64,000 bases of DNA from Minisyncoccota bacterium. GTDB lineage: Bacteria; Patescibacteriota; Minisyncoccia; Phycocordibacterales; UBA5272. The position numbers were made by a program, and so were the translations under genes. The stretch lies in assembly GCA_046350775.1 (NCBI GenBank), contig JAXLZS010000001.1, forward strand, positions 223,930 to 287,929, written 5' to 3'. The notes under the pieces are model-generated. The model saw only the letters and a program-made list of their open reading frames with translations, was not told the origin of the DNA and did no database searches. Position 1 is the stretch's first letter. Every line of letters begins with the position of its first letter. Of this stretch, positions 3,214-57,714 are shown one piece after another.

Positions 3214-6200
3214 CTAAATGACTATATTTATAAGCCTTTTTGGAACGATTATGATTTTTTTGATTTGACTTTCATCGGTAACATATTTTTTATAAGTCTC
3301 TAAAGTCTTCACAAAATCTTTTATTTCTTCCTCATTTGCTTCTGACTTAATAATAAAAGTACCTCTAAATTTTCCAGAAATTTGCAAACTCATCTCTATT
3401 TCTTCTTTTATTATTTTTGATTCTTCATATATTGGCCAAGTCGATGTGTGAATAGAAGATTTATTTCCTAAAATATTTTGCCAGATTTCTTCACAGATAT
3501 GTACAGCGAAAGGCGCTAGGATTTGTATAAATTTTTCTAAAGTATTTTTAGAAATTTTATTTCCTTTTTTTATCTCCTCTTCAAAAGAGTTAAGACAAAT
3601 CATGAGTTGAGAGATAGCTGTATTAAATTTGAACTCTTCGATATCTTCACCTACTTTCTTGATAGTCTGATTAATCGCAAATTCTACTTCTTTTGAATCT
3701 TCTTTATTATTAAGATCAACTTTTTCAAAAATATTATAAACTCTTTCTAAAAATCTCGAGACTCCTGCTATACTATTTGTATTCCAAGAGATAGCTTTTT
3801 CAAATGGACCCATGAACATCTCATATGTACGCATCGCATCTGCTCCATACTCTCTTACCACATCATCTGGATTCACTACATTGCCATATCTCTTACTCAT
3901 CTTCTTTCCATCTTCTGCCATGATTAGGCCAACTGTTTGTAGTTTACTAAATGGCTCATCATAATTTACCAATCCTTTATCAAAAAGATATTTATGCCAA
4001 AAGCGAGCGTAGATTAAATGTCTTGTCGCATGCTCTGCTCCTCCGACATAAAAGTCTACAGGGCTCCAGTTTTTCTCAAGTTCTTTATCTGCAAAAATAT
4101 TTTCATTTTTTGGATCAATATATCTCAAATAATACCAAGAACTTCCCGCCCATTGCGGCATAGTATTTGTCTCTCTAAAGAATTTTTTTGCTTTTGGATC
4201 ATTTTGATCACAAGATTCGAATTCTCCTTCATCATTTATAAATCCATAAACTTCTACCCAATCTTTTATATTTGCGAGTGGAGACTCTCCATTATCTGTC
4301 GGCTCATAATTTTCTACATTCGGAAGGATCACAGGCAAATCTTTATCAGCAACTGCATAGCTTTTTCTATTACCATTTTCGTCTTCTGCAAACACAATTG
4401 GAAATGGCTCTCCCCAATATCTCTGCCGCGCAAATACCCAATCTTTTAATTTGTATTTACTTACAATTTTCCCTCCAACTTTTTCTGTGATTTTTATTCT
4501 CGCTTCTTCACTATTCATTCCATCAAAATCACCTGAATTAATTAATATTCCATTTTCTGTATATATAAAATCATTAATACAAAAATTCCAAATAAGTTTT
4601 TGATTAATATGAGTTAAGTAATCTAAAACATCGTCTTTTTCTATCCAAATAATTTCGTGTAAATCTCTTTCATCTTGATCAATATCTTGTCTTTCTTCAT
4701 CGATTAAATCAAAACACAAAGCACTAGCTATCATATATCTATTTATATTTTTGTGTGGAGCAAAAAACTTTGAATGCACTTCAAACATATCTCCATTTGA
4801 TTTTATATATTCAAAATTTTTATATCCTGTTTCTTCTATAATCTCTCTTTTGGCAGCCTCTAACAAACTTTCCACACCTTCTACTCCTCCAGTGATCATT
4901 GATTGCCATCCTTCTTTTTTAAATTTTATAAAAAGATATTTATTATTTTTTGGATTTCTTACAATTGCATGAATATTCCTCCTTCTCACAGTCTCTACAT
5001 TATCCCTTATTTTTAAATCTTCTTTATTTTCAAAATAAGGAGCGATGACTTGTTTAATCTTCACACCATACTTCTTTGCGAATTCATAATCTCTTTCATC
5101 ATGTGCTGGCACAGCCATGATCGCTCCAGTTCCATAATCACTCAAAATATAATTCGCAATATAAATTGGAACTTCTTCTCCATTCGCAGGATTGATAGCT
5201 TTGATACCTGTATCAATTCCTTCTTTCTCGAGCTTGCTCATATCAAAGTCTATAGCTCTCTCTTTTTCTTCTTTTTCGAGCTTCGCTATAAACTTTTTTA
5301 TTTCTTCGCTAGCATTCCAACCATCTTTAATCCACTCTTTTGCAAGAGTGTAAGATATAGCCATGAATGTACATCCATACAAAGTATCCGCACGAGTTGT
5401 AAAGATTTTTAATTTATCAAAACTTTGATTTAAAACTTCTATCTCTTCTTTTCCAAAAAAATGTGGGTCACTTGCCACAACGTCTATTAATTTTCCATTT
5501 AAAGATTTTGATAATTTTAGAGTATTTTCTTGAGGAACTAAATTGTCTTCAATATCTCTTAATAAAATAAATTCTTTTGAATTACTTTTAATTTTATTAA
5601 AATCAAAATTCCAATCAAAAGTATATTCAGGAAAATTTTCATCTATAAAATTATTTTCTAAATAACTTCCAACTAAAATAGTTTTTTTAATAGGATTTGA
5701 TAGTTTTTCTAAAACTTTTAGAGCTACAACACCCCCAAGACTATGTCCAATAATGACAGTATTATTATCAAATTTTATATTTTTTAAAATAAATTCTACC
5801 TGATCGTAAACTTTTGGGTCATTTGAATCTGGTAATTCTGGAATAACTACCAAGTGTCCTCTTTTTTCTAATTCGTCTTTAAGCCAAGGATAAAAACTGC
5901 TTTCAGGAGTATTATCAAAAGCATGTAAAATCACAAAATTTAATTTTTCATTTTTTATCTCAAAATCTATCTCACTTCCTTCACTTTTTCCAATCCAATT
6001 TCTCTGAAGCTCTTTTATATGAGGCTCCCAATTGAGTTTATCAAGATCATTTAAAAGTCTGTCAGCATAATCTGTAATACGTATAGTCCATTGTCTTAAT
6101 TTTTTCTTTTCTACAACTGTGCCACATCTCTCGCAAGCATTTCCGTCGAGATCTTCATTCGCAAGACCAGTTTTACAGCTGGGACACCAATTAATAGGAT

Positions 6201-14278: not shown

Positions 14279-14282
14279 AATG

Positions 14283-14366
14283 TGCGCCGGGCAAGATTTG
14301 AACTTGCGTAGCCCGAAGGGCGACAGATTTACAGTCTGTTGTAATTGACCACTCTACCACCGACGC
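14283..14366 (-). tRNA. tRNA-Tyr (anticodon GTA), type II with a long variable arm
   Basis: The reverse complement folds as a cloverleaf: 7-bp acceptor GCGTCGG/CCGGCGC with one G-U pair, anticodon stem ACAGA/TCTGT with loop CTGTAAA, variable arm GCCCTTCGGGC, and T-arm GCAAG-TTCAAAT-CTTGC. Confidence 0.8.
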
Positions 14367-21521: not shown

Positions 21522-22550
21522 TTAATCTTTCTTATATTTAATACTATCCTTTTCACTTCTAATTTTTATTTCTTTTATCAATTCCACTTTTCTGATCACT
21601 TTATCACCTTCTACTTCTTTAGTAAATTTAAAATTTAAAGCTAGTCCATTTTTCACATCTTCATTAAACCATTGATCAAAAATATAATTACCAAGTGAAT
21701 AATAAATATATTTCTCTTTATATATTTCACTATTTTCTATCACATGTGGATGCATACCAACCACAAGATCTGCGCCAGCATCAATCCACTCTTTCGCATA
21801 TCTTTTTTGTGTAAGATTAGCAGTTAAAGAATACTCAATCCCCCAATGTGGCACCACTACTATGAAATCTACTTTTTCATTTTGCTTTAACAATTTTATT
21901 TCGTCATCTATCATTTTAGGATCATTATTTGATGTAAATTGATTGTATCCTATATAGGCAATACAAATTTCTTTTTCACATACAATATTTGATAATTTAT
22001 TATTTATATTTTGATTGTAAGGATTACCAAAATATTTTATATTTCCAACCCCCAAAAATCTCATTGTATCTTGAAAGCCTTGATTATCAAAATTGTCTGT
22101 ATGATTATTAGCTAGAGAGACGACTTTTATATTTAAAAGTTTTAATATTTCTGGAGTAGATGTAGAAAAAGTGAAAGTCAAAAGCCCTGTATATTTACCA
22201 TGGATATCATAAGTCTTAGTATTATTGTCTGTTATTGGACCTTCTAAATTTCCTACAACATAATCATAGTTTTTATTTTGTTCTCTCAAATTTCCTAAAA
22301 AATTGTCTACAAAATTCTCAGGACTTTTATTTTCGATTATTTTCTTTCTGATATTTCTGTCGAGCATTATATCTCCGACTAATAATAAATTTAACTCTTT
22401 CTTGTCTTCAGTTTTTTTTATCGAATCTAAATCTATATTATTATTTACATATTCACCCCTGCCTATATTTTTATTTAAAAAATAACCAGCTACCAATAAA
22501 AATAATATTACTAAAATTATCTTAACTAAGTGTATTTTACTTTTTAGCAT
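21522..22550 (-). CDS. CapA-family (PGA_cap) metallophosphatase-like protein, membrane-anchored
   Basis: Motifs LLLVGDIMLDR, VSLANNHTDNFDNQG, VVVPHWGIEYS and VVGMHPHVIE match the CapA calcineurin-like family. Confidence 0.7.
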   Translation of the reverse strand: MLKSKIHLVKIILVILFLLVAGYFLNKNIGRGEYVNNNIDLDSIKKTEDKKELNLLLVGDIMLDRNIRKKIIENKSPENFVDNFLGNLREQNKNYDYVVGNLEGPITDNNTKTYDIHGKYTGLLTFTFSTSTPEILKLLNIKVVSLANNHTDNFDNQGFQDTMRFLGVGNIKYFGNPYNQNINNKLSNIVCEKEICIAYIGYNQFTSNNDPKMIDDEIKLLKQNEKVDFIVVVPHWGIEYSLTANLTQKRYAKEWIDAGADLVVGMHPHVIENSEIYKEKYIYYSLGNYIFDQWFNEDVKNGLALNFKFTKEVEGDKVIRKVELIKEIKIRSEKDSIKYKKD

Positions 22551-23136
22551 TCTTTCTAAATATCAAAAACATTAGAAATCCAAAAATAGCACCCAAGGTA
22601 TCCATAAGCATATCCTTTTGCGCGTCCCAGATATCGCCTTGTGATCCGAGAACTTCTATGCCAGCCGAAGGATTTACAGAGACAGCGTACCACCATTCAA
22701 ATAGCTCATAAGTCATGGCTAGTGCCATAATAAAAAATATCGCATAAGTAAAAGCTATCCATCTGTTATTTACCATTTTATATTTCAATAGTATTTCAAT
22801 AATAGCAAAAGAATAAAGTCCCACAGAAGCATGAGCTACTCTATCATACATATTTCTACTCGAATGGATCATATTGTTAAACCAATCAAATGGCACATTT
22901 GCAAATGTATAATGAGCTCCTATGATATGCATTACCGGAAATATCAAACACAAAACATAAGCTAAATTTGAAAGTCTAACTTTTAAAATATATAAAATTA
23001 TAAATAAGACGACAGATATAGCTGAGGTCACTGCTTCCACTTTCCAGACTGATACATCGACTGGATTTATACTACTCCAAACAAAAAATACAATATAAAT
23101 TAATAATAAAATAATAGGAAATAAATGTTTTTTCAT
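22537..23136 (-). CDS. Polytopic inner-membrane protein of unknown function
   Basis: 199 aa with about 6 hydrophobic helices. It overlaps the CapA gene's start by 14 nt. Confidence 0.45.
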   Translation of the reverse strand: MKKHLFPIILLLIYIVFFVWSSINPVDVSVWKVEAVTSAISVVLFIILYILKVRLSNLAYVLCLIFPVMHIIGAHYTFANVPFDWFNNMIHSSRNMYDRVAHASVGLYSFAIIEILLKYKMVNNRWIAFTYAIFFIMALAMTYELFEWWYAVSVNPSAGIEVLGSQGDIWDAQKDMLMDTLGAIFGFLMFLIFRKNAKK

Positions 23137-23166: not shown

Positions 23167-24615
23167 TTATTTATTGAATTTTTCTAACACTTCTTTTTTA
23201 AACTCAAAAAATCTATCTTCTAAAATACTCTTTCTTATATCTTTGGTCAGACTAACAATAAAATGTAAATTGTGAATAGAAGCTATCGTAGCAGCGATCA
23301 TTTCTTTACTTCTAAAAAGATGCGCAAGATATGATTTTGTATATTGATGAGCGTAGCAATCTGGATCATCACAAACAGAAGAAAAATCTTCTTTATATTT
23401 ACTATTAAAAATGTTTATTCTGCCTTCTTTGGTGTAAATAGATCCATTTCTAGCAAGACGAGTCGGAGAGACACAATCAAAAGTATCTATACCGTATTCT
23501 ACGCCCAAAAATAGATCTTCTATTTCACCGATACCTAAAAGATGTCTTGGTTTATCTTCTGGAAGATTTTCTGTAGAAATTTTCACAGTTTTTGCCATGT
23601 CTTCTTTTGTGAAGCTTCCCCCAATACCAAATCCATCAAAATATTTTTTCTCACCATTTATATCTACATTCATTTCACCTAATGTTTTAGCAGAATATTT
23701 TCTTAAATCATCAAACGCTCCACCTTGTACCACAGCATAAAGAGCTTGAATCTCTCCAGTCGCACCACTCTTTCCTAGTTCATGGTGATGAGTGAGAGAT
23801 CTTTTTGCCCAGCGATGAGTACGCTCGAGTGACTCTTTTTGATATTCTAAATTAGCGAGTGGAGAAGTACATTCGTCAAAAGCAAAAAATATATCACCTC
23901 CAAGATCATGCTGAATCTCCATACTTTTTTCTGGAGTAAAAAAATGCTTTGACCCATCTATCACACTACGAAACTCAACTCCATTTTCAGAAATTTTTAC
24001 TAAAGATTTTTGTGACAGTTCTTTTTTAATACGATATTTTTTAAAAAATAAATTATCTATAATCAAAAAAGTTGTAGACATGATAACCAGATTTAAAAGT
24101 AAATTCATATCTTCCCCAAAAATCCTAGCAAGAAATCCTACAAAAAGACAAATTGCAATCTCTATTATTAAAAATTTTTTCCTTAAAATAAATTCTTTAA
24201 ATTTTAAAAATTTATTTTCTTCAAGGTTTTTATCTAGATTTTCATTTGTAAGATCTTCTCTTTTAGCAATCTTTGATACGCCGACTCCCATTGCCGCACC
24301 AAGAGAAAATACCTGAAACCCTCCGCTATCAGTAAATGTTGGACCATCATAATTCATCATCTTGGCAAATCCTCCATGCTTTTTAACTATTTCATTTCCA
24401 GGCTGGAGATAGAGATGATAAGTATTTGCAAGTACCGCATCACTTTTTACATAATTTTCAAAATCTTCTGGTAAAATACTTTTGACTGTAGCCTTTGTAC
24501 CAACTGGTATAAAAGCTGGCGTCTCAATATCGCCATGAGGAGTGCGAATCACACCCGCTCTCGCAAGTTGTGCTTCATTACTTTTTTTAAGAATTTCAAA
24601 TCCAAAGTTTTTCAT
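23167..24615 (-). CDS. tgt: Queuine tRNA-ribosyltransferase (tRNA-guanine transglycosylase) with a ~100-aa internal insertion carrying two hydrophobic helices
   Basis: Motifs TPHGDIETPAFIPVGT, TDSGGFQVFSL, PEKSMEIQHDLGGDIFFAFDEC and DTFDCVSPTR, plus a C-terminal Zn site CDDPDC...H. It is 482 aa versus about 370 aa typical. Confidence 0.85.
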   Translation of the reverse strand: MKNFGFEILKKSNEAQLARAGVIRTPHGDIETPAFIPVGTKATVKSILPEDFENYVKSDAVLANTYHLYLQPGNEIVKKHGGFAKMMNYDGPTFTDSGGFQVFSLGAAMGVGVSKIAKREDLTNENLDKNLEENKFLKFKEFILRKKFLIIEIAICLFVGFLARIFGEDMNLLLNLVIMSTTFLIIDNLFFKKYRIKKELSQKSLVKISENGVEFRSVIDGSKHFFTPEKSMEIQHDLGGDIFFAFDECTSPLANLEYQKESLERTHRWAKRSLTHHHELGKSGATGEIQALYAVVQGGAFDDLRKYSAKTLGEMNVDINGEKKYFDGFGIGGSFTKEDMAKTVKISTENLPEDKPRHLLGIGEIEDLFLGVEYGIDTFDCVSPTRLARNGSIYTKEGRINIFNSKYKEDFSSVCDDPDCYAHQYTKSYLAHLFRSKEMIAATIASIHNLHFIVSLTKDIRKSILEDRFFEFKKEVLEKFNK

Positions 24616-25120: not shown

Positions 25121-26131
25121 TTACCAACCACAAATTTCCTCACATTTAGCAATAATATTTCTCGGAGAAAGATCATCTTCGAGTCCAAGCCTCTCTACTC
25201 TTACAATATTATCCTTTTTAATTTCAGCGACTGATTCAGCGACGAGAGACCCTAGACCGCCAACTTTAGAATGCTCTTCAATAGTCAGAATATTTCTATT
25301 ATTATTTGCAAAATTTGCTATAAAAGATTTTATTTTTTGATTGATATATTCACTATTTGAAGAAATTAATGACATATTTAAGACTGTCACATTATAATTT
25401 TTTTCTTCCAAATCTTTAGCCGCCACAAGAGCATTGTAAAGTATAGGACCAGAAGCTATTATGCCAACTCGAAAAGCAGAATCTAAGTTAGAAGATATGT
25501 GAACTATTTCAGGCATACCCGTGTATTCACGCAAAGTATCATTTTGATTATTGATAAAATAATTATCACTATATATTTTTGGAGAAAAATCATTTACTAG
25601 CCTGAAATAAGAAAATTGTTTTTGATTATTTTTAAAAAATTTCTTTTCTGATACTCTGATCAAATATTCTGCCTCATTGGCATCAGCTGGGACAAATATA
25701 TTTACTTGACCAAGATTCCTCATAAGAGAGACGTCATGATATTTGTCTTTAGAGTCTTTTTGGATCATATTCAAAACAGATAAATTTATGTCTTTATTTT
25801 TATTGTCAGAAAATCTTGATACAACTTTAAGCAGTCCTCTATAAATCTTTATAAGATTGTCGGCAAGACTAGTATTTAAATTTTGCAAAACTCTGTCAGC
25901 ACCACTATTTATCAAAAATACATTTTTAGACTCTTCAGCTGATACTATAGCTGATATCTCTATCGAATTGTCGACAGGAAAAATATGTTTTGATTTTTCT
26001 CTTGTAATATTCAAATTGTCGACTTCAAAAATTTTGTTGTCGTCTTTATTTAAATTCAATAATGATAAAAGTGTATTTTCTACTTGACTAGCCTTCTCCT
26101 CCTCTTTTTTAAATAAATTTTCTGATAACAT
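25121..26131 (-). CDS. Transketolase-like protein, C-terminal half (pyrimidine-binding / C-terminal domain), possibly degenerate
   Basis: The C-terminal region GIIASGPILYNALVAAKDLEEKNYNVTVLNMSLISS...LTIEEHSKVGGLGSLVAESVAE matches the transketolase C-terminal domain. The upstream DANEAEYLI is TK-like, but the canonical GIAEQ segment is not evident. Confidence 0.55.
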   Translation of the reverse strand: MLSENLFKKEEEKASQVENTLLSLLNLNKDDNKIFEVDNLNITREKSKHIFPVDNSIEISAIVSAEESKNVFLINSGADRVLQNLNTSLADNLIKIYRGLLKVVSRFSDNKNKDINLSVLNMIQKDSKDKYHDVSLMRNLGQVNIFVPADANEAEYLIRVSEKKFFKNNQKQFSYFRLVNDFSPKIYSDNYFINNQNDTLREYTGMPEIVHISSNLDSAFRVGIIASGPILYNALVAAKDLEEKNYNVTVLNMSLISSNSEYINQKIKSFIANFANNNRNILTIEEHSKVGGLGSLVAESVAEIKKDNIVRVERLGLEDDLSPRNIIAKCEEICGW

Positions 26132-26135
26132 ATTT

Positions 26136-26798
26136 TTAATTTACATTTGCTAAAATAATCGTAGGCTTTTTTAATTTTTTTGCATAAGCTATCGCATCAC
26201 ATACCGATGACACATTATCAGCGTTGATCACCAAAGTATCAAAACCAAAACCAATTAATCTCGCATTGAGTCTACTCTCCTTATTCAATTCTTCTTCTGT
26301 AGCTTTTGTATAAAGAATTGTAATAATATTATGTAATTTATTTTTTATAATATATTCTAAAGATGAAATTTTTGAAAAAATATCATCTTCACTCGCTACT
26401 ACAAAATAATATCTTTCATGTTTATCTTCCAGATCTCTAGCTACAATATGATGGCCTATAGCATCTGCAAAAGAATTTTCCACTTTATCGAAAGAGTTTT
26501 CGGAAAGATAATTCTGTAGATTTTCAAATTCAGTATATCCCACATGTGTCTTTGTGACATTTTTTACAATATTAGAAAAGACGTTTGTCGCAAACACTCT
26601 GTCCCTATTTTTCCAAGTCTTATTTTCTGGATGATGATTTATAGATTTAAAATATAGAGATGTAAAAATCGCAGATAAACTTGTAAGATTTTTTAAAAAT
26701 GAAGTACCTTGTGAAGAAAAATTGCTCTCTAGAGTAATATTTATATCCTCTTTAACTCTATTGAGAGCGTCCAATTCATCATTTGTTAAAGTTTTCAT
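26136..26798 (-). CDS. Transketolase-like protein, N-terminal half, apparently degenerate (TPP-binding motifs not conserved)
   Basis: HHPENKTWKNRDRVFATNVFSN aligns with the TK N-terminal P..P.W.NRDRFVLSKGHA region, and the C-terminal PTIILANV resembles PTLIIAHT. The GH..G and GDG motifs are not recognisable. Confidence 0.45.
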   Translation of the reverse strand: MKTLTNDELDALNRVKEDINITLESNFSSQGTSFLKNLTSLSAIFTSLYFKSINHHPENKTWKNRDRVFATNVFSNIVKNVTKTHVGYTEFENLQNYLSENSFDKVENSFADAIGHHIVARDLEDKHERYYFVVASEDDIFSKISSLEYIIKNKLHNIITILYTKATEEELNKESRLNARLIGFGFDTLVINADNVSSVCDAIAYAKKLKKPTIILANVN

Positions 26799-57122: not shown

Positions 57123-57521
57123 TTACAAATCTGTTTTAATCTCTTTTAATATAAAACTAAGATTGACTGGGAGTTTTTCTTCTGCTTCTTCAATTGAAAA
57201 CCAACGTTTCTCAATATCACTTTCTCCATCATCTACTTTTCTAATAACTTTAGAAAGAAACATAAAAATTCTTATAGCTTCACCAGACTCTTTATGAGTA
57301 TATGTAATATTGGAAAGTTCTCCTAAGAGTTCAATCTCATAACCTGTCTCTTCTAAAATTTCCCTTCTAGCTGTATATTCTTTTGTTTCGCCTTCTTCCA
57401 TGTGACCTTTTGGAAAAGACCAATTATTTTGATCTGGGATTGTAACTAAAAGAATTTTTCCTTCATTTAGCACAATACTTCCAGCTTTCATGGTCTCGTT
57501 ATTTTCATTTTTTATTTTCAT
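57123..57521 (-). CDS. NUDIX hydrolase
   Basis: The Nudix box reads FPKGHMEEGETKEYTARREILEETGYE. The track ORF start at 57605 would overlap the tRNA, so I moved the start to an internal Met. Confidence 0.7.
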   Translation of the reverse strand: MKIKNENNETMKAGSIVLNEGKILLVTIPDQNNWSFPKGHMEEGETKEYTARREILEETGYEIELLGELSNITYTHKESGEAIRIFMFLSKVIRKVDDGESDIEKRWFSIEEAEEKLPVNLSFILKEIKTDL

Positions 57522-57528
57522 ATTTTTG

Positions 57529-57615
57529 CGGAGAATGTGAGATTCGAACTCACGGAACCAATAAAGGTTCGGCGGTTTAGTAAACCGCTGGTTTAAACCA
57601 CTCACCCAATTCTCC
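57529..57615 (-). tRNA. Type-II (long variable arm) tRNA with an atypical anticodon loop UUACUAA; identity uncertain (apparent anticodon ACU; Ser/Leu-like architecture)
   Basis: The reverse complement reads GGAGAAT-TG-GGT..ACC-A-GCGGT-TTACTAA-ACCGC-CGAACCTTTATTGGTTCC-GTGAG-TTCGAAT-CTCAC-ATTCTCC-G. The acceptor, T-arm and variable arm are canonical; the anticodon loop is not. Confidence 0.6.
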
Positions 57616-57624
57616 TTTTAAATC

Positions 57625-57714
57625 TGGCGGAGACGATGGGATTTGAACCCATGAGGGGATTGCTCCCCTGCCTCGTTAGCAGTGAGGTGCCTTCGACCAC
57701 TCAGCCACGTCTCC
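57625..57714 (-). tRNA. tRNA-Ser (anticodon GCT), type II, CCA encoded
   Basis: GGAGACG acceptor, anticodon arm CCTCA-CTGCTAA-CGAGG, variable arm CAGGGGAGCAATCCCCTC, T-arm GGGTTCAAATCCC, and 3' CGTCTCC-G-CCA. Confidence 0.8.

Follow-up and report, generated by a model that had tools for sequence, protein, structure and literature searches.

Bacterial tRNA guanosine(34) transglycosylase (Tgt) exchanges guanine 34 (G34) for prequeuosine 1 (preQ1) in transfer RNAs (tRNAs) with GUN anticodons, acts as a homodimer and is regarded as a soluble, cytosolic enzyme. Some other RNA-acting enzymes carry elements that direct them to a membrane: RNase E has an internal amphipathic membrane-targeting segment and RNase Y an N-terminal transmembrane helix, and such elements are gained and lost between lineages. 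The membrane association of the eukaryotic transglycosylase is peripheral and is not known to involve a transmembrane segment. For the eukaryotic enzyme, QTRT1/QTRT2, one paper gives the outer membrane of mitochondria as its place (PMC10548180, which cites Boland et al. 2009). The subject of the present analysis is the tgt gene in a stretch of 64,000 nucleotides from a Minisyncoccota bacterium (contig JAXLZS010000001.1, assembly GCA_046350775.1, positions 223,930 to 287,929), here called the window, which has a G+C content of about 30%. The product of this gene contains a hydrophobic hairpin of transmembrane type. The hairpin is real, reproducible and clade-specific, and it is nested in a loop extension of Tgt found throughout the candidate phyla radiation (CPR). 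Its probable role is that of an optional anchor in the membrane, which is unusual for an enzyme that modifies tRNA but not the mark of a new kind of enzyme.

The window protein resembles canonical bacterial Tgt (E. coli; Z. mobilis 1Q2R/1ENU) in its family assignment (TIGR00430/PF01702), its TIM barrel with a C-terminal subdomain and its three catalytic Asp residues. It differs in 99 extra residues after SGGFQVFSLG, which include the hairpin, and in altered pocket and zinc motifs that are CPR-wide and not specific to the hairpin clade. Other Tgts of CPR/Paceibacteria (for example P0006 and P0020-P0038, 405-455 aa) share the GxGVSKIA extension, the altered motifs and the synteny, but the two hydrophobic helices are missing from them. 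The likeness to the eukaryotic enzyme is that of a membrane-associated member of the Tgt family, and the difference is that the hydrophobic hairpin is here integral to the catalytic chain. As in RNase E and RNase Y, a short hydrophobic element would bring an enzyme that acts on RNA to the membrane's cytoplasmic face; those enzymes belong to other families, and here the element is a two-helix hairpin in a loop of the catalytic domain rather than a terminal or in-plane helix. Literature searches that covered Tgts anchored in a membrane, queuosine in Patescibacteria and transmembrane insertions in CPR proteins turned up no Tgt described as having a transmembrane segment. The gene and the parts of its insert are as follows.

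23167..24615, minus strand: tgt, bacterial-type tRNA guanosine(34) transglycosylase, 482 aa (open reading frame (ORF), profiles, PDB matches, AlphaFold2 fold)
24001..24297, minus strand: whole insert, residues 107-205 (unaligned in the phmmer and Pfam alignments, unmatched in Foldseek)
24238..24297, minus strand: CPR-conserved extension AAMGVGVSKIAKREDLTNEN, residues 107-126, soluble, outside the hairpin (homologue alignment)
24178..24237, minus strand: linker 1, rich in Lys, Asn and Glu, variable, residues 127-146 (indels; model confidence below 50)
24115..24174, minus strand: hydrophobic helix 1 FLIIEIAICLFVGFLARIFG, residues 148-167 (Kyte-Doolittle, insertion energy, AlphaFold2)
24109..24114, minus strand: acidic turn Glu168-Asp169, predicted extracellular (no Lys or Arg in EDMN)
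24043..24108, minus strand: hydrophobic helix 2 MNLLLNLVIMSTTFLIIDNLFF, residues 170-191, with Asp187 (Kyte-Doolittle, insertion energy, AlphaFold2)
24001..24042, minus strand: Lys/Arg-rich exit flank and linker 2 KKYRIKKELSQKSL, residues 192-205 (six Lys/Arg in residues 192-206)

The assignment to Tgt is supported by several searches. The Pfam TGT profile PF01702 matches with an E of 1.5e-124 and 416 bits (cutoff 26.3), in a match that is split into two stretches, and the NCBIfam equivalog TIGR00430 matches at 424.2 bits (cutoff 306.75). In the PDB, 55 chains of the Tgt family match, the best with an E of 6e-84. Asp96 (TDSGG), Asp247 (FDEC) and Asp380 (FDCV) align with the E. coli-type chain and are invariant in 53 homologues; the catalytic and substrate-binding Asp residues of the Z. 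mobilis enzyme we take to be D102, D156 and D280. With family scores far above the cutoffs and the catalytic Asp residues present, the enzyme is predicted to be intact. The close homologues all belong to genomes of Patescibacteria/CPR that carry the labels Paceibacteria, Nomurabacteria or Parcubacteria. In what follows, P0001-P0120 denote the homologous Tgt proteins listed and L011-L089 the loci of GTDB species. In addition, the window contains at 14282..14366 a gene for tRNA-Tyr(GTA), which Tgt is expected to use as a substrate; this is circumstantial support for G34 exchange.

The position of the insert is fixed by alignment to the E. coli-type chain 10fb_A, in which query residues 18-106 correspond to chain residues 13-100 and query residues 206-474 to chain residues 103-360. 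Residues 107-205 thus stand for two reference residues, located between barrel strand beta3 (TDSGGFQ) and a small three-stranded sheet. The initial annotation had described a 482-aa Tgt with about 100 inserted residues, and the ORF and this alignment agree with it; its motif spacing (8 residues against about 100), insert peptide and coordinates are also correct by alignment. Its picture of one single insert of about 100 residues holds for the total, which is 99. It does not hold for the make-up: the comparison with the 120 listed homologues and 79 GTDB species loci indicates that the insert is composite, consisting of a CPR-wide soluble extension in its first 20 or so residues, linkers and a hairpin that accounts for only about 47 of the 99 residues. 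The segment from SGGFQ to PExS measures 29 aa in E. coli, 58-104 aa in hairpin-less CPR Tgts and 126-142 aa in hairpin carriers. The GxGVSKIA(T/K) motif is present in nearly all of the 120 listed homologues and in the GTDB loci. The Tgts of CPR/Paceibacteria in general have an extension of about 30-40 aa after SGGFQVFSLG, with the strongly conserved GxGVSKIA(T/K)S, near active-site residues. The hairpin itself (residues 147-193) reads KFLIIEIAICLFVGFLARIFG-ED-MNLLLNLVIMSTTFLIIDNLFFKK, with Lys-Lys 192-193 as the exit flank within it. Linker 1 terminates in FLKFKEFILRK, similar to the end of helix 2, and the variable linker 2 covers residues 194-205.

An AlphaFold2 model was built on a 53-sequence alignment and has a mean predicted local distance difference test (pLDDT) of 83.7. 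Helices are predicted at residues 147-166 and 172-195, with block pLDDT values of 74-85, and the pLDDT is below 50 at residues 99-135 and 197-202, which link the hairpin to the barrel. The model has the (beta/alpha)8 barrel with the C-terminal zinc subdomain, and Foldseek matches it to Z. mobilis Tgt (1q2r_A) with an E of 9.6e-36. The TM-score is 0.92 when normalised by the target and 0.72 when normalised by the query, and the insert is thus an unmatched excursion from the Tgt fold, as the structural check proposed in the initial annotation was meant to establish. The insert lies in the beta3-alpha3 loop, six residues past pocket residue Gln101, and to judge from TIM-barrel topology it would be on the catalytic face.

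Membrane likeness was assessed with mean Kyte-Doolittle hydropathy over 19 residues, calibrated on the window's own membrane and soluble proteins. The maximum is at most 1.63 in all clearly soluble ORFs of the window and at least 2.05 in all membrane or secreted ORFs, and it is 2.47 in Tgt. This value belongs to helix 1 (residues 148-166), and helix 2 (172-190) scores 1.86. The free energy of membrane insertion (deltaG) was calculated on a re-implementation of the position-dependent scale of Hessa et al. 2007, with internal calibration as the sole check on its parameters, and is -1.88 kcal/mol for residues 144-166 and +0.29 kcal/mol for residues 170-191. On the same scale, transmembrane segments encoded in the window (DUF2238, MFS, EamA, histidine-kinase, PBP, MreC and DsbA-like proteins) range from -5.3 to +0.5, and the minima of 12 soluble enzymes of the window are at least +2.0. 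Each of the 13 other carriers has both helices in the range of -2.67 to +0.92. In 109 other CPR Tgts the minimum found in the insert is never below +2.88, and the gap between the two groups is empty. Residues 133-147 and residues 192-206 contain six Lys/Arg residues each, and the EDMN turn, two of whose residues are acidic, contains none. As read from the sequence, a hairpin whose two ends are cytoplasmic should show this distribution. With hydrophobic moments of 0.26 for helix 1 and 0.05 for helix 2, the helices are not amphipathic and have no polar face.

The two hydrophobic stretches of the initial annotation are thus borne out by the hydropathy means. Its word "uncharged" is not, as Glu152 and Arg164, both invariant, and Asp187 sit inside the helices. 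The proposal of a transmembrane hairpin gains from the calibrated hydropathy, the Lys/Arg flanks, the low moments, the AlphaFold2 helices and the absence of indels, and it loses from the conserved charges and from repeated deletion, both of which are taken up below.

A second use for two such helices would be as a protein-protein module, either a four-helix bundle that would strengthen the homodimer of Tgt or a place for a partner to dock, with the helices buried in protein and not in lipid. We consider this unlikely. It is favoured by the homodimeric nature of Tgt and the many PDB dimers among the matches, by the intermediate confidence that AlphaFold2 gives the hairpin in a calculation that contains no membrane, and by the conserved charges within the helices, which could make specific contacts. 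However, the helices are hydrophobic all round, which makes dimerisation less likely, since a soluble bundle needs a polar face. In addition, an acidic turn between flanks rich in Lys and Arg is characteristic of hairpins in membranes, the long, variable, low-confidence linkers are ill-suited to a fixed interface, and the dimeric Tgts of close relatives manage without the hairpin.

The hairpin was found in 14 sequences, including those of six GTDB species representatives (L011, L012, L013, L014, L016 and L040). The carriers are uncultured and known from metagenomes alone. The alignment with homologues that the initial annotation had called for indicates that the hairpins are clearly homologous to one another, and the hairpin is absent from other close relatives. 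Glu152, Arg164, Asp169 and Asn171 are invariant in the 14 sequences, 13 of which have Asp or Glu at position 187. In the hairpin-carrying tgt of L014 (CAZWMQ010000001.1, 3001..4440) the longest ORF that could be extracted has 274 aa and the tblastn match spans residues 2-479, which suggests a frameshift, a stop or an assembly error.

Assembly error had been named in the initial annotation as a way in which the insert might disappear, and this way out is now closed. The identical 482-aa protein is present on eight contigs from at least four Joint Genome Institute (JGI) metagenomes, in the same gene neighbourhood, and the insert is therefore not an artefact. The related idea of an in-frame mobile element has a precedent in Rickettsia, where in-frame insertions of MITEs (miniature transposable elements with inverted repeats) in conserved genes are known (PMC10969869). 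The palindromic elements of Rickettsia resemble the present insert as short in-frame insertions in housekeeping enzymes that are patchy among relatives, and imperfect direct repeats at the deletion boundaries of the hairpin would also fit such an origin. The hairpin departs from them in that the searches below found neither further copies nor a palindrome or RNA structure, and it is not a member of that group. A HMMER scan of 1.84 billion representative proteins with the hairpin returned two Tgt fragments and two spurious repeat proteins and nothing else, and blastn and tblastn searches of the window and the loci fetched until then found copies inside tgt orthologues only. A metagenome scan with the hairpin profile, which keyed on a low-complexity pattern and is unusable for counting, gave among the matches listed one confirmed locus, again a Tgt. 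Thus no dispersed copies were found outside tgt orthologues in the protein, locus and metagenome searches. The hairpin segment shows no RNA structure (fold z-score 0.04) and no terminal inverted repeats or palindrome beyond inverted repeats of AT runs, which are 71-78% complementary.

Inteins are marked by an N-terminal Cys, Ser or Thr, a C-terminal His-Asn followed by a nucleophile, a length of at least about 130 aa and a Hint domain. The insert begins with Ala107 and ends with Leu205, has no His-Asn and no intein motifs, and the only Pfam domain found is TGT, so an intein was rejected. Taken as one explanation, assembly artefact or in-frame mobile element (of the Rickettsia or MITE type, or an intein) is highly improbable. 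A 78-aa antisense ORF across the insert (24080..24316, plus strand) was also considered and set aside. It is open in most carriers, and its frame is nearly stop-free in all eight carriers examined. The absence of Tyr, His and Gln codons from the insert accounts for this, and antisense runs of 115-153 codons are open in other genes of the window.

Selection was measured from the nonsynonymous and synonymous differences (pN and pS) among the eight carriers with DNA, in which pS is 0.50-0.62 in all regions and near saturation. The regions compare as follows.

Core: pN/pS 0.18-0.19, amino-acid identity 85%
Conserved extension (residues 107-126): pN/pS 0.10, amino-acid identity 91%
Hairpin: pN/pS 0.41, amino-acid identity 61%
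Linker 1: pN/pS 0.57, amino-acid identity 47%, with indels
Linker 2 (residues 194-203 as scored): pN/pS 0.62, amino-acid identity 45%, with many indels

The hairpin segment is translated, because its pS equals that of the core while its pN is constrained; this too speaks against an artefact or mobile element. Its 47 codons are free of indels in the eight aligned genes (and in the 14 protein sequences), and both linkers are indel-rich. From these values the hairpin is under constraint, chiefly on its length and hydrophobicity as membrane helices usually are, and less strongly than the core.

These data also bear on the view that the hairpin is a tolerated, non-adaptive passenger, the product of an AT-rich loop of low complexity that expanded or was duplicated, and that it has no stable place in the membrane and is in the course of being lost. 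T-rich codons would supply its Phe, Ile and Leu, and selection would act only against harmful half-degraded forms. We regard this view as rather unlikely, although it deserves more weight than a protein-protein module. The evolution of the hairpin at about twice the rate of the core agrees with it. However, two exposed hydrophobic helices of 20 residues would be costly in the cytosol. Both helices are in the transmembrane range in all 14 carriers with no intermediates, 47 codons without indels lie between indel-rich flanks, and four residues are invariant. A chance origin would also be rare. In dinucleotide-randomised window DNA, 2.75% of 47-codon windows are open and 0.03% of the open ones are hairpin-like, which puts the hairpin beyond chance.

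The passenger view also draws support from the history of gain and loss. In a neighbour-joining tree of core columns only, carriers and non-carriers are interleaved. Three sister groupings unite a carrier with non-carriers: the query with P0006 (bootstrap 87%), P0012 with the P0020 clade (100%) and P0007 with P0043 (85%). A Fitch count on neighbour-joining trees gave 10-13 changes, which is an over-estimate with deep nodes at 14-19% support and is not relied on. P0012 and P0032 are identical at 94.7% of nucleotides and differ by one clean in-frame indel of 105 nt, bounded by imperfect direct repeats, TTTCTCTTCATAGAAATTTTA (coding for FLFIEIL) and TTTTTCTTTATAGATATTTTA (coding for FFFIDIL). Between the query and P0006, the relative closest to it, DNA identity is 84%, and the deletion there is of at least 126 nt, with end-points that differ from those of the P0012/P0032 case. 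Remnants occur in hairpin-less relatives (FLNFLLNVIMKIKKY in P0016, TKLLNSLFSFFKK in P0010), some of which keep remnants of helix 2, and the passenger view would take remnants such as that of P0016 for decay.

With three supported sister pairs and different end-points, the simplest history would include several independent deletions, following a single origin in the ancestor of the "VGVSKIAKREDL" subclade. Spread by homologous recombination may be an alternative history. There is also a hint of how the hairpin arose. Motifs are repeated (FLKFKEFILRKK, FLIIEIA and FLIIDNLFFKK), a weak 40-nt direct repeat, D1, is 70% identical between 24174-24213 and 24034-24073, and hairpin-less relatives have an amphipathic FLxFIKxLFKK motif with a hydrophobic moment of 0.5-0.6 in several of them. 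Birth by duplication of a short amphipathic motif is offered as a suggestion only; the motif repeats and the direct repeat would also suit the passenger view as a duplication origin.

The reading that we prefer, with moderate confidence, is that the hairpin serves as an accessory anchor in the membrane, its two ends cytoplasmic, for a Tgt that is catalytically intact. The beta3-alpha3 loop, already extended by about 30-40 aa in CPR, also carries the 47-residue hairpin in one subclade of Paceibacteria. The hairpin would enter the cytoplasmic membrane in such a way that its ends stay inside and the Glu-Asp turn lies outside, so that the Tgt barrel would hang on flexible linkers at the cytoplasmic face. 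We infer that the short acidic loop would be inserted by machinery of the YidC/Sec type, as in other helical hairpins. Catalysis would proceed without need of the anchor, and in-frame deletions have taken the hairpin away several times, at least once between short direct repeats. One possible benefit would be the placement of the enzyme near the uptake of queuosine precursors.

Several points weigh against this reading. First, charged or polar residues (Glu152, Arg164, Asn175 and Asp187) lie within the helices, the strictly apolar helix cores are just about 11 residues long and helix 2 is marginal by itself, on a deltaG scale checked by internal calibration only. Secondly, the hairpin lies 147 residues into a cytosolic domain, and its insertion would therefore be late or post-translational. 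Third, the neighbourhoods compared have no conserved transporter or membrane gene beside tgt. Lastly, several close relatives have lost the hairpin by deletion, so that Tgt can function in its absence, and its frequent loss argues against an important or central function; its physiological importance is probably modest, because these relatives manage without it.

A bolder version of the anchor reading appears doubtful. It holds that Tgt is truly membrane-tethered and the anchor functional, for example in coupling the salvage, at the membrane, of imported preQ1 or queuine to tRNA modification in precursor-auxotrophic cells. If it were true, the series from amphipathic motif to duplicated motif, hairpin and repeat-mediated deletions would document how, within a conserved enzyme, a transmembrane domain was born de novo and died repeatedly. 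Even for the accessory anchor, insertion of the hairpin would have two consequences. It would provide a natural example, in cells that are ultra-small and metabolically dependent, of an enzyme for tRNA modification restricted to the surface of the membrane, and a well-sampled case of a transmembrane hairpin that appears in, and cleanly leaves, a tolerant loop of a TIM barrel. At the level of sequence, the Tgt loop tolerates insertions of about 100 residues, and length outliers among CPR proteins can mix clade-wide extensions with recent add-ons.

Two further motifs of the window protein depart from canonical Tgt. The pocket motif GIGGSFTKED (residues 330-339, 23599..23628) replaces GGLAVGEPKAD of E. 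coli and Z. mobilis in a segment three residues shorter, and it is nearly invariant, with 9 of 10 columns fixed across 53 CPR homologues. In the canonical GGLAVGE pocket we presume the Leu231/Ala232 switch, Val233 and Glu235 to be the relevant residues; Glu338 pairs with Glu235 or not, according to the placement of the gap in the alignment. The replacement may indicate a different base specificity. The zinc site reads C415-x4-C420-x2-H423...H448 (23347..23373 and 23272..23274), and the canonical site is CxCxxC...H. Ser or Trp takes the place of the two Cys residues in 12 of 53 CPR homologues, and the site may thus be altered or lost in part of the clade.

Some homologues carry additional domains. 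P0009 (541 aa) is a fusion of Tgt and ASCH (PF04266), and in L009 tgt is followed directly downstream by a gene for ASCH (5478..5801). P0047 (579 aa) and P0114 (593 aa) have a PemK-like domain (PF02452) N-terminal to Tgt. All three fusions may instead be products of gene calling.

The gene order rpiB-rpe-tkt-tgt-...-uvrB is common to CPR/Paceibacteria relatives. In the window, transketolase is split into two genes (25121..26798, minus strand), and synteny in the order rpiB-rpe-tktN-tktC-tgt extends across the clade. At 220 aa the N-terminal half is short, and it has a weak Transketolase_N match (E 5e-5, below the domain threshold). Directly downstream of tgt is a five-helix membrane protein of the DUF2238 (YjdF-like) family (22537..23136, minus strand), which overlaps the next gene (PGA_cap). 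It was considered as a partner or transporter for Tgt and rejected, as relatives with or without the hairpin have DUF1653, ASCH plus DUF1761 or small ORFs in that place. Elsewhere in the window, ARAGORN calls two adjacent tRNA-Ser genes (57528..57615 and 57625..57714, both on the minus strand), an unusual anticodon ACT beside the normal GCT, and the ACT call overlaps part of the ORF at 57123..57605.

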